Of a stretch of DNA of 64,000 nucleotides, positions 20,282 through 52,772 are shown piece after piece. Origin of the DNA: Felis catus (Eukaryota). The notes under the pieces were generated by a model that did not search any database, was not told the origin of the DNA, and worked only from the letters and a program-made list of their open reading frames with translations. The stretch covers positions 59,770,001 through 59,834,000 of the forward strand of contig NC_058368.1 in assembly GCF_018350175.1 (NCBI RefSeq), written 5' to 3'. The position numbers and the translations under genes are program-made. The number at the start of each line of letters is the position of its first letter. Within the stretch, counting starts at the first letter, position 1.

Positions 20282-20430
20282 AAAAATATTCTTTAATATG
20301 ATACATATACTAGAATTCCCCACATGGAGGACTTAATATCCAATTATAAAGGCTCCCTATCATAATGGAATTAGTTCCTATAATAATGTTTGTCATTCAC
20401 AGCCATCCACCCTCTTTTGTAAATCATCCC

Positions 20431-20438
20431 TATATATA

Positions 20439-20516
<78 letters not shown>
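20431..20516. repeat. Compound microsatellite (TA)4(TG)7(TA)10(CA)14(TA)8
   Basis: Directly visible. Confidence 0.95.
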
Positions 20517-20517
<1 letters not shown>

Positions 20518-20622
20518 TTTACAGAGTTGATTTTTTATGCCTTTCAAATTTAGTATCTAATAAATAGTATTTGCCAAAGTGCTTCCTAACCTAAGTTCTA
20601 CCAGTCAAAAAAAACCAGCCAG

Positions 20623-21137
20623 TTTTTTTTTTTTTTTTTTTTTTAGAGCCGATATTTATTTACTCAGCAAGCCCTGTATAAGTACTTTATATGCACAAAC
20701 TCATTTACCATGGCCAAGAAGTCTAAGGTAAGGACTCTGACTATTTTATATTAAGACAAAATCTCGCAGACTGTAAGACATAGACTCAGACTCAGAGACG
20801 CTAAGTAACTTACTCCAGGGCACACAGCTTCAGAGCAGTAGAACTGATAACACAATGGGAGAGGTGAAGAACTCAAGGAGCAGTTGAGGGCTCTAGATGA
20901 CCTGTGAGAGATGGTGGGAGAGGCCAGCTTCCTGCCTTCACACCCTTCAGCAGACGAAGAAGGCCAATTCTGTGTGTCTCCTGAAGGCAGAGCAGGACTC
21001 ACAGCCGGGAGGGCCGAGAGTCTCCATCCTTCCGGGAGCTGAAGCCCGGGTTCCTCTGCCAACGGTGCCCGCCGCCCGCAGCTGTCTGGGCCCAGAACTG
21101 CCGCCGGGGCAGCGCTGCCTCCCGATCCACTCCTCGA
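20623..21137 (-). pseudogene. Putative retrocopy of an unidentified short polyadenylated transcript
   Basis: Pure T22 at 20623-20644; AATAAA (minus, 20655-20660) 10 nt before the tail; MIR-like 3' part; CpG-rich 5' end with an abrupt return to AT-rich flank; no TSD found. Confidence 0.7.
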
Positions 21138-22082
21138 TGCACTTTGGTTTGCATGGAGTTATTTAAGGATGAGGATTCTGCCTGGAACATTTGTATACTG
21201 AAGAGAGATCCTTTGAGGAGTCTGACATCCAAACCATTAATAGATATTGTTATAACATCAAGTTTCCTGGGAGTTGTACAGGTTTTATTTGAGCTGCATT
21301 ATAAGATTACAGGTGGCAATGGCAATGTTATCTTTCAAATCAGTTCCTGGTATGATTATGCTCCTCATTTATTGATGTTTTCAATGGACCTTGTCTCCAG
21401 CTCAAATGGTTCTGTAATACGCATTAATCAATTTATTTCTCTGTGTAGCAAATTTGAGTGGCTTGAATTGTCTGCAAGTCAGAATCCTGACACAATAATT
21501 TGTAAATAAAATTATTTTAAGAAACAGATAATAATGAAAATGGAAATATGGATTGGTAAACTCATCTGGATAAGTTTAAAATAGTTCCTATGAATAAATG
21601 TAGCCATGGTGGTCCATGGTATATAGTAGAAAAACATCTACTGAAACAATTTCATCTAGTTACTGAGAGTAAAGACCATTTTGAAACTGAGACCTTCATT
21701 TCCCAAATATATAGCTGTTGCCATGAAACACTATAAAATATACAAAAATTAGAAGGAAGGTAGACTGAACTGTTTTTTCTGATTATACTGAGAGCTTTAA
21801 AAAAAAGAAAAGGAAATCATATGCTAGAAAGTTTAAATTTTCAGCTCAAGAAAAATAAGTGTTTAAATGAGTTCCAAATGAAATAAATTTTGTCTCATTA
21901 TCATAGAGCTAAAATAGTTAAAATAAATTTATATTTAGAATTTTAATTTATAATTAGACAATAAAATTATTGTAATAATTGAATTTAATACCTTACCAGT
22001 TCCCTTACCTGAAAGTTAGAGAATTGATCAGAAAAAATGAAATGTGAGAATTACAGTAGAGACTTTCCAGGGAAAATTGGAC

Positions 22083-22775: not shown

Positions 22776-24136
22776 CCAGTTAATAAGTCAAACTCAAGCT
22801 GAGAAATATAAAATATAAAAAAATATGATTAATTTTTGTTGTGACACAAGTCAGCAGGACATGTTTTACAGTATGCTTTTAGGGTACTACGTCATGAGTT
22901 CACATTTAGGGCATTAAACATAAATTTGGGTAGTGATGAATTTATCGATGTGCCTGTATTGTTCAGAGATTCTGGCTCATGAAACCTGTGCTCTGTTGTG
23001 GCCTATGTTTAATAGGTATAGATGTGAGGTATTTTTTTAATAATATAGAATAATTATCCTAAAATACTTTGAAAACTAAAGTTATACATTTATTTACCCA
23101 CTCCCTAGCTATGGCCCATGAGAGTAACCACAAAATCTTTATCACACCAAAGATCCAAAAAGATACTGCTGAGAAAAACATCATGTTCTTTGAAAAACAA
23201 ACTTTTGGCTGCCCTTTATAGACCAGAGATGATTCTGCCATGGAAATAGATTCCCTAATTTCAATGGGGGAAGATGAGACACCTGATTCCAAGTAGCTGG
23301 AATTCACCTTCAAAGGTAAAGTAGAAAGGAACACACGCGAAAATTCACAAACTGGAAATTAGAATTGTTTTAGCTTCAGAGATTTTGATGGCAGCTAACT
23401 CGTTCATGGCATCCCAATGACTAAAATGTCAGGGAAGTTTGTTAAAGCCTCATGAGATCTGTGTAATCAAATGAATTTTATTCTATTAAACACAAATCAG
23501 ACTTAGCCAATATGATCTATGAAAATCATGGTGTTCTATACAATTTCTAGTTCTGAACCTGGAATAAATGAAGGCCAGGTGCAAGTAAGGAAGAACCCTG
23601 CAATAAATTCACAAGCATATATATTAAATCTTCCTTCTAGTTTCTCTGAGTTATCTATCTGCCACTGAATGACAGGAAATACACAGAAAATACAGATGAT
23701 ATTGAACAATGAGCCGGGTTAATGTCAATACTGAGACTGAGTCCCATAGTGTGCTGCTGGTCATAGTTGGAGCTTTGGAAAAATTCACAAATAAGTGCAT
23801 TTTGGCCATAATTAATCTATTGGTGGATTCGGTGTTTCTTTGGCTAATTTCCTTGTAACCGATTGATTGAATAGGGTGCTAGAAAAGCTTGTCATATTCC
23901 AAACATGTCAGTCTAGCTACTTGATGAGGAAAGTGTAAGTTCTTACTGAAATGATCAAATAGAAATCTCTTGACATCCTCATTCCTACCAAAAAAGAAAA
24001 AAAGAAAAAGAAGTAAAAGTTTTAAAAAAGTATATATTTTAAGAGGCCTGACAAAAATAAAATACAAACCCTTATTGATTTTTTCATTATATGAATTTCT
24101 TCAAATGTTCTTCAGTTAATTTAAAGACAATGGACA

Positions 24137-25908
24137 ATCAAAGGCATCAAAATTGGCAAAGATGAAGTCAAGCTTTCGCTTTTTGCCGATGACATGATAT
24201 TATACATGGAAAATCCGATAGACTCCACCAAAAGTCTGCTAGAACTGATACAGGAATTCAGCAAAGTTGCAGGATACAAAATCAATGTCCAGAAATCAGT
24301 TGCATTCTTATACACTAACAATGAAGCAACAGAAAGACAAATAAAGAAACTGATCCCATTCACAATTGCACCAAGAAGCATAAAATACCTAGGAATAAAT
24401 CTAACCAAAGATGTAAAGGATCTGTATGCTGAAAACTATAGAAAGCTTATGAAGGAAATTGAAGAAGATTTAAAGAAATGGAAAGACATTCCCTGCTCAT
24501 GGATTGGAAAAATAAATATTGTCAAAATGTCAATACTACCCAAAGCTATCTACACATTCAATGCAATCCCAATCAAAATTGCACCAGCATTCTTCTCGAA
24601 ACTGGAACAAGCAATCCTAAAATTCATATGGAACCACAAAAGGCCCCGAATAGCCAGAGGAATTTTGAAGAAGACCAAAGCAGGAGGCATCACAATCCCA
24701 GACTTTAGCCTCTACTACAAAGCTGTCATCATCAAGACAGCATGGTATTGGCACAAAAACAGACACATAGACCAATGGAATAGAATAGAAACCCCAGAAC
24801 TAGACCCACAAACGTATGGCCAACTCATCTTTGACAAAGCAGGAAAGAACATCCAATGGAAAAAAGACAGCCTCTTTAACAAATGGTGCTGGGAGAACTG
24901 GACAGCAACATGCAGAAGGTTGAAACTATACCACTTTCTCACACCATTCACAAAAATAAACTCAAAATGGATAAAGGACCTAAATGTGAGACAGGAAACC
25001 ATCAAAACCTTAGAGGAGAAAGCAGGAAAAGACCTCTCTGACCTCAGCCGTAGCAATCTCTTACTCGACACATCCCCAAAGGCAAGGGAATTAAAAGCAA
25101 AAGTGAATTACTGGGACCTTATGAAGATAAAAAGCTTCTGCACAGCAAAGGAAACAACCAACAAAACTAAAAGGCAACCAACGGAATGGGAAAAGATATT
25201 CACAAATGACATATCGGACAAAGGGCTAGTATCCAAAATCTATAAAGAGCTCACCAAACTCCACACCCAAAAAACAAATAACCCAGTGAAGAAATGGGCA
25301 GAAAACATGAATAGACACTTCTCTAAAGAAGACATCCGGATGGCCAACAGGCACATGAAAAGATGTTCAGCGTCGCTCCTTATCAGGGAAATACAAATCA
25401 AAACCACACTCAGGTATCACCTCACACCAGTCAGAGTGGCCAAAATGAACAAATCAGGAGACTATAGATGCTGGAGAGGATGTGGAGAAACGGGAACCCT
25501 CTTGCACTGTTGGTGGGAATGCAAATTGGTGCAGCCGCTCTGGAAAGCAGTGTGGAGGTTCCTCAGAAAATTAAAAATAGACCTACCTATGACCCAGCAA
25601 TAGCACTGCTAGGAATTTATCCAAGGGATACAGGAGTACTAATGCATAGGGGCACTTGTACCCCAATGTTCATAGCAGCACTCTCAACAATAGCCAAATT
25701 ATGGAAAGAGCCTAAATGTCCATCAACTGATGAATGGATAAAGAAATTGTGGTTTATATACACAATGGAGTACTACGTGGCAATGAGAAAGAATGAAATA
25801 TGGCCTTTTGTAGCAACGTGGATGGAACTGGAGAGTGTGATGCTAAGTGAAATAAGCCATACAGAGAAAAACAGATACCATATGGTTTCACTCTTATGTG
25901 GATCCTGA
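24137..25908 (+). pseudogene. L1 ORF2 C-terminal half (RT FADD motif to cysteine-rich domain), one frameshift near 25586
   Basis: [23 protein letters not shown]..., [25 protein letters not shown]; continues in another frame as [12 protein letters not shown]...SLLCGS*. Confidence 0.96.
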
Positions 25909-26162
25909 CAAAATTAACAGGAACCCATGGGAGAGGGGAAGGAAAAAAAAAAAGAGGTTAGAGTGGGAGAGAGCCAAAGCATAAGAGACTGTTAAAAACT
26001 GAGAACAAACTGAGGGTTGATGGGGGGTGGGAGGGAGGAGAGGGTGGGTGATGGGTATTGAAGAGGGCACCTTTTGGGATGAGCACTGGGTGTTGTATGG
26101 AAACCAATTTGACAATAAATTTCATATATAAAATTAAAAAAAATAAAAAAAATAAAAAAAAT
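24137..26162 (+). mobile_element. Young 5'-truncated felid LINE-1 (L1_Fc-like)
   Basis: TSD AAAGACAATGGACA at 24123-24136 and 26163-26176 with TT/AAAG nick site; ORF2, G-rich 3' UTR, AATAAA and patterned A tail. Confidence 0.98.
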
Positions 26163-26422
26163 AAAGACAATGGACATAATTAGTAGAGTGCTACATGGAT
26201 TTGCATTATTTAAGATCACATTTGGTTATGAAGCAGTAAAGATCATGATTCATTGTATTTTAAAGTTTGTATGTGTGGGAAAATCATCCAGTGTTAGTTA
26301 ATTTAAACCTTGAATTATTAACACTCTAATAAATAAAAATATAATTTTTATTGTTTTGATTTATTGTTATTGAGGTTTCACATTTTAATTATTTCTCTAG
26401 ATACTGGTTTATATAATTTTTC

Positions 26423-52049: not shown

Positions 52050-52772
52050 AAGATACTTCTGACCAAGGTGCGTTAACAGGGTAGAACCTTACACTACTAC
52101 CTGAAACAACTAAAAAAAAAAAAAAAAAAAAAAACAGACAAAATATATAAACAACTTTTAAATGTTGGAAATCATGGAATGAGGGACAGTGATCCTGGAG
52201 AGACAAGAAACAAGATGAGCCCTATTGTTGGTAATTTTATTGCCTTGAGAGAGTTTTCCAGAGCATGGCAAAGGGAGATAAAACCCAATGAACTTCCTGA
52301 GTTGCAGACACCTAGTTGATGAGTCTAGGGGAAAGAAGGTGGATAGAGATTATAGAACAGAGTAGCAGAAAGGAGAGGCACAAAGATCTGCAGTTTCTTT
52401 CCCACAATTACTTAGCAGATTGCTGATCAGTACATGCCTGTGAGAAAATACTCAAGGATGAGGGGAAACCAATGGAATTAAAGGGAATGGAATCTAGAAT
52501 TGACATTCAGTTCTCTTAAAATGCAGGATCAAAAAGTAAGCTGACTGCTTATTTTTTTCTAAGAAAAACAGAACCATTTCCAAAGTGGGCGTATTATTTT
52601 ACATTCCCAAGAGCAGTGACTGCGTTCAAGTTTTTTTGCATCCTCACCAACATTTGGCATGATCAGTCTTTAAAATGTCAGTTATTCTATTTGGTGCAGT
52701 GATACCTCATTCTAGTTTGAATTTGTCTTTCCCTTATTGTTGATATTAAGCTTCTTTTCAAGAGGGTTTTTG

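Follow-up and report, generated by a model that had tools for sequence, protein, structure and literature searches.

How did a GC-rich patch, a MIR-like segment and a pure A tract come to lie end to end in AT-rich DNA? A preliminary description, made from the letters of the sequence, had proposed a recent retrocopy of an unidentified CpG-island transcript. In the window (the whole stretch of 64,000 nt that was analysed), whose GC content is 0.34, the insert lies on the minus strand and covers 518 nt, from 20623 to 21140. We recounted 13 CpGs within 21000–21137, as had been reported, with a GC content of 0.72 and an observed/expected CpG ratio of 0.75 against 0.22 for the window. The AATAAA likewise stands 10 nt before an uninterrupted 22-nt A tail, seen on the plus strand as T22. 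The window holds seven further 138-nt peaks with 7–13 CpGs each, which belong to one SINE family (84–97% alike), presumably of the felid Can-SINE type, and the peak of the insert is unrelated to it. No second copy of the insert segment was found within the window, Rfam gave no match in the window and Pfam gave none among seven local reading frames. The coordinates of all features are compiled in Table 1.

Table 1. Features of the NKD1-derived insert and the SINE copies of the window
Feature	Position	Strand	Basis
Poly(A) tail, pure 22 nt	20623..20644	-	Sequence; at most about 2 A templated in the parent (contig branch)
MIR-like 3' part, limits approximate	20645..20845	-	Resemblance and one paralogous contig
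Non-canonical (hidden/skipped-type) terminal exon, 401 nt	20645..21045	-	Two-copy contig of X9; no NKD1-like match continues in this way
AATAAA poly(A) signal	20655..20660	-	Sequence; tail begins 10 nt further on
Unused GTGAGT donor, 43 nt into the hidden exon	20997..21002	-	Sequence; GT at 21002-21001 in GCT/GTGAGT
Spliced junction of exon 3 and hidden exon	21045..21046	-	Parent has a GT...AG intron here (X9 contigs)
3' 95 nt of NKD1 coding exon 3 (about residues 33-64), 5'-truncated	21046..21140	-	Protein identity; two-copy contig
5' junction	21139..21144	-	Sharing with the parent stops after 21140; two X9 contigs overlap at 21111-21140
SINE copies (138-nt CpG peaks)	3814, 5693, 14007, 26679, 27865, 55289, 57743		Mutual likeness

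We first consider the GC-rich head. The 45-codon minus-strand frame at 21004–21138 was used as query in a protein search with 85 candidates, and 22 of them matched at E≤10. All 22 carry the same exon peptide of NKD1; 14 are named naked cuticle homologues, while the remaining eight are unnamed ORFs with the same exon. Tiger NKD1 is identical to the window at 31 of 31 residues. One unnamed match has this peptide too, so that a felid source, likely from the tiger match and the SINE type, is not proved by the identity alone. The parent is therefore not an unidentified transcript, as had been supposed, but the protein-coding Wnt-inhibitor gene NKD1. The exon is deduced to be number 3 from matches of two kinds, one reading through intron 1 (P0016) and the other with exon 2 skipped (P0021 and P0023). 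Its remnant, with 10 CpGs and a GC content of 0.74, is the source of the CpG patch, so that the head, once taken for a transcript start, is an internal coding exon cut by 5' truncation. These matches overturned an alternative that took the head for a non-coding exon 1 and the ATG at 21027 for the true start. The likeness to NKD1 ends at residue 64, which is the end of the exon. Beyond this residue, 12 of the 22 matches go on with the canonical exon 4, seven read through into the intron and three continue with other sequence; the continuation found in the window is present in none of the 22.

The parent locus was then sought in DNA reads. Depth and contigs were taken from one of 14 DNA-type rows, run X9, which carries no mark as a possible source for the window. 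Among the contigs specific for the window's copy, the one that runs from the left flank through the tail has a depth of 28.1, that over the internal junction 45, and that leading from the 5' junction into the right flank 39; the contigs of the body are deeper, with 60 over 20643–21046 and 74.7 over 21045–21140. Two further contigs, with depths of 28.9 and 31.1, are specific for the parent: only 30 bases match the window, after which they diverge. The doubled depth and the two diverging contigs together indicate one other locus, sharing 20643–21140 with the window. The segment recognized in the preliminary description is thus real, with its 5' boundary moved from 21137 to 21140, and the second locus without a genomic A tract that it had called for is found in these parent-specific and two-copy contigs. 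Since this locus exists, and NKD1 protein identity agrees with it, the segment is not a native one lacking a counterpart.

Both parent contigs diverge at 21045/21046. On the donor side (877-nt contig, minus strand) the parent continues with GTACGA after 21046, and read by eye in frame this contig gives VRSPPT, as in P0009, an ORF reading from NKD1 exon 3 into the following genomic sequence. On the acceptor side (2851-nt contig, minus strand) a pyrimidine tract ending in TTGGAAG precedes 21045. A 58-nt contig of X9 crosses the spliced junction of the window. In other words, the parent has a GT-AG intron that is absent from the window, which is the precise intron loss expected of a processed pseudogene. 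As the copied RNA was spliced, it was neither an unspliced exon-1/intron-1 RNA nor a divergent promoter transcript nor an orphan transduction, all of which had been suggested earlier. The GCT/GTGAGT donor near 21000, on which the unspliced reading had drawn, is present at 21002–21001, but it is an internal donor that was skipped inside the hidden terminal exon.

At the other end of the insert, the single-copy contig ends at 20672 and the two-copy contig starts, by its length and offset, at 20643. Given this branch of the contigs, no more than about two A can be templated where the parent's RNA is cleaved, the parent's own downstream contig not being among those listed. An A22 that follows an AATAAA and begins at such a branch is an untemplated poly(A) tail 3' of a poly(A) signal. 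The shared contigs of X9 differ from the window at no position, and because assembly may collapse single-base differences between parent and copy, this suggests that differing sites are few. The pure A22 and the retained CpGs also point to a recent insertion, and with carnivore mutation rates the copy is probably less than about 2 million years old. X9 contigs carry the splice junction as well as the junctions with both flanks, and no joint skipping the insertion was seen in this run, so that X9 looks homozygous for it. Moreover, 20 of the 24 listed public runs contain the stretch or part of it. In 14 rows (one species, nine studies) 0.97–0.99 of its words are present, where about 0.90 would be expected for an animal without the insertion; these rows are the top-ranked ones, which makes the insertion common and does not imply fixation. 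Runs X15, X16 and X18–X20 hold 0.11–0.55 of the words and do not enter into the evidence.

The copied RNA continues from exon 3 into a 401-nt hidden exon in place of exon 4. This exon adds 32 in-frame codons and then a TGA at 20947–20949. Its 3' segment we take to be MIR by resemblance, and a contig of X9 from another locus matches 20793–20829 of the MIR-like part at 32 of 37 bases. Use of the donor at 21002 would make a 43-nt cassette that shifts the frame. The hidden exon would most simply lie in intron 3 of NKD1; its linkage to the gene is inferred, as the donor-side and acceptor-side contigs of the parent are separate. With exons 1 and 2, the parent RNA is predicted to encode about 96 aa (64 + 32). 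According to the available text of PMC2776356, the NKD1 gene comprises 10 exons; its product is myristoylated at the N-terminus and has an EFX motif for binding Dvl, which is abolished when the motif is deleted. In NKD1, residue 143 is the first of the EF-hand-like YDFD stretch, and the predicted product of about 96 aa would therefore be without the EFX motif. The 96-aa isoform was not returned by the protein search, which covered its length, nor was it found, as judged by titles and the openings of abstracts, in the NKD1 literature searched on intronic or alternative polyadenylation and retrocopies; supplements and curated gene annotation may list it. A protein-space search for the hidden exon in other species, limited by length and weak, matched none of 56 candidates. 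Scanning metagenomes with a 20-nt motif of the exon brought up two loci of 70% GC; with only 22–23 nt matching, they were rejected as chance.

The copy itself is a promoterless and start-less processed pseudogene, not a retrogene. The start codon and exons 1 and 2 of NKD1 are absent from it, and what is left is only a 26-codon ORF from the ATG at 21027. It was probably dead on arrival and without function. Its template can be read as an intronically polyadenylated NKD1 RNA, of which the copy would be a 5'-truncated fossil, the isoform being otherwise unrecorded in the sources searched.

We propose the following history, in which we have high confidence as a whole. An NKD1 transcript of the germ line would have been spliced from exon 3 into the downstream hidden exon, most simply within intron 3, and then cleaved and polyadenylated at the AATAAA of an old MIR-like repeat. 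In the germ line or early embryo, L1 proteins would have used this RNA as the template for reverse transcription, starting from its poly(A) tail at an AT-rich target. Synthesis would have halted after about 500 nt, within exon 3, and the 5' end would have been joined without a visible TSD, through a blunt joint, a very short TSD or a small target deletion. The preliminary description agrees with this history in its view of a recent retrocopy whose source RNA was prematurely polyadenylated and ended at a MIR-like poly(A) site. Several elements have precedents: the available text of PMC5470649 gives poly(A) tail, intron loss and 5' truncation as hallmarks of L1 retrocopies, that of PMC2553571 describes MIR 3' ends as suppliers of AATAAA and hidden terminal exon sites as the class most associated with transposable elements, and mouse Nkd1 is expressed in testis and spermatids according to the passages available from PMC3644045 and PMC4750114, which cite Li 2005.

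The first alternative is a chimera of exon 3 and an exon from an unrelated locus, arising by template switch, read-through or trans-splicing. In its favour, the 877-nt and 2851-nt contigs of the parent are not joined and a TSD is absent; the joint, however, lies exactly at the exon 3 donor of NKD1 and at an AG after a pyrimidine tract. A template switch need not respect donor and acceptor, which speaks against the chimera, and we consider it very unlikely.

The second alternative keeps the same RNA and changes only its way in: endonuclease-independent capture during double-strand-break repair, as a templated insertion with target deletion, in place of canonical TPRT. Our scans agree with the earlier failure to find a TSD: between the left flank and the right junction they detected no exact match of at least 7 nt and none of at least 10 nt with one mismatch. 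At the junction the flank matches reach 4 nt at best, and others (4–7 nt, A runs, far away) were taken as chance. The TSD of at least 5 nt expected of canonical L1 TPRT is thus missing, with room for one made of T only or shorter than 5 nt. Its absence is atypical, since short TSDs are rare for 5'-truncated mRNA retrocopies in the available text of PMC2912911, a study that collected only TSDs of 5–30 bp. Past 21140 there is one mismatch, and then a Lys codon again fits NKD1 (K-C-I in the window, K-G-I in NKD1); the 5' joint may accordingly involve a short microhomology and is also compatible with chance. A missing TSD and a possible microhomology would suit break repair, but the long intact poly(A) tail abutting the flank and the 5' truncation fit TPRT, and a T-rich nick site may hide in the T run. 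We give this alternative as small a chance as the chimera.

As for a lncRNA, a divergent promoter transcript or an unspliced exon-1/intron-1 RNA as source, the CpG-rich head, the retained donor and the MIR-like end had made it attractive, but the head is coding exon 3 of NKD1, lying in the sense direction, and the intron has been removed, leaving this reading next to no probability. A native GC patch beside a resident MIR, a DNA-level duplication or an assembly artefact is just as implausible: in its favour, no empty site turned up (a weak, length-limited protein-space search matched neither of two candidates), yet two-copy depth is confined to 20643–21140, the intron is lost, the tail is untemplated, and the flank and splice junctions stand on contigs of a run not marked as a possible source.

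Retroposition of an early-terminated NKD1 RNA by L1 is the reading kept below, and the neighbourhood of the insert may be described briefly. A compound (TG)n(TA)n(CA)n microsatellite, nearly palindromic, lies at 20418–20523, about 100 nt to the left of the insertion, and the window has a second pure A run, A23, at 52112–52134. About 3 kb from the retrocopy there is a 5'-truncated L1 on the plus strand (24125–26200, end approximate) in which 492 codons of ORF2 remain (Pfam RVT_1, E 1.3e-08). Of the window's 145 longer frames, 80 were searched against Pfam for a host gene; only L1 reverse transcriptase passed the cut-off, and no host gene was recognized. A stop-free plus-strand frame of 174 codons (20985–21509) runs antisense through the NKD1 part, across the 5' junction and into the flank; it has an ATG near 21153, followed by 118 codons, and no Pfam match. 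We had considered 21141–21500 as an inverted 5' part of the insertion, with this frame as support. It was ruled out, as the stretch is single-copy in X9, and the frame matches only antisense NKD1 ORFs (P0002 and P0004), P0001 and one repeat protein at 30%. P0001 is an unnamed 93-aa ORF of a public assembly, 51% like the flank part of the frame (21273–21527), which suggests orthologous or old repeat DNA in the flank. An RNA-run contig of depth 4, possibly DNA, covers 21167–21531.

Is the isoform made today? RNA reads came from X24 and X21, about 12.9 million each (1–2% of the run), and from X17. No read crosses the splice junction in the X24 and X21 samples, no X17 contig does so, and none of the three runs has RNA across either flank junction. 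X24 gave one read, which covers exon 3 only (about 21045–21140 by bin depth); the remainder of the read does not resemble the window, and canonical or unspliced NKD1 would be expected to yield such a read. From X21 came one 150-base read at about 20664–20813, oriented as minus-strand RNA, which could represent the 3' end of the isoform or stem from priming at the genomic A22; the three further reads of this run are less than 90% alike to the window. X17 has a 189-nt contig inside the hidden exon with one difference at 20973, and also a 366-nt contig in the flank, so that this run may contain DNA. Present-day expression of the isoform is barely supported, by two single reads of which neither spans the junction.

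The insertion itself is ordinary and probably inert. It may be useful as a marker of lineage or of presence/absence, and at NKD1 exon 3 the copy can mislead short-read mapping as well as CNV and methylation calls. What gives it value is the evidence that, in this lineage, an early-terminated NKD1 RNA that had been spliced reached the germ line or early embryo, and it supplies a concrete junction and poly(A) site to look for in testis RNA. We also thought of a regulated germ-line NKD1 isoform, governed by an intronic MIR-derived poly(A) switch and with convergent short forms elsewhere (bat models), an idea that we hold to be unlikely. If it were true, the switch would make a 96-aa protein that keeps the myristoylated N-terminus and loses the Dvl-binding EFX motif, or it would simply shut off full-length NKD1 in spermatids; in that case Wnt feedback during spermiogenesis would be tuned in an unrecognised way.

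Compared with known systems, the NKD1 copy shares with 5'-truncated L1 processed pseudogenes the intron loss, the poly(A) tail, the truncation into coding sequence and the new AT-rich location. It differs from typical ones in two respects. First, no TSD was detected. Second, its template was a minor, early-terminated isoform. Sequence that the canonical gene carries as intron makes up about 80% of the copy, and a retrocopy screen based on proteins would see only 31 codons. That retrocopies can be archives of transcript isoforms is a known idea (Shemesh et al. 2006, as cited in the available text of PMC4772013 and PMC5470649). The NKD1 copy likewise records a splice form absent from the annotation searched; in contrast to the known archives, it is one felid-like NKD1 case, not found in the literature searched.

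Two kinds of early-terminated transcripts are also comparable. Hidden or skipped terminal exons with a MIR signal (Lee, Ji and Tian 2008, PMC2553571, in its available text) show the same splice into an intronic exon and an AATAAA at a MIR-like 3' end, whereas the NKD1 hidden exon is known from a DNA fossil alone; with its unused donor, it has features of both the hidden and the composite types. The short NKD1 models of the bat Phyllostomus discolor (XP_035869412.1 and XP_035869413.1; P0017 and P0008 in our search), predicted database isoforms of 113 and 90 aa, also end soon after exon 3 with non-canonical tails, but neither tail aligns with the hidden exon of the window. The bat models may reflect recurrent early termination in intron 3 of NKD1, or may be annotation artefacts.
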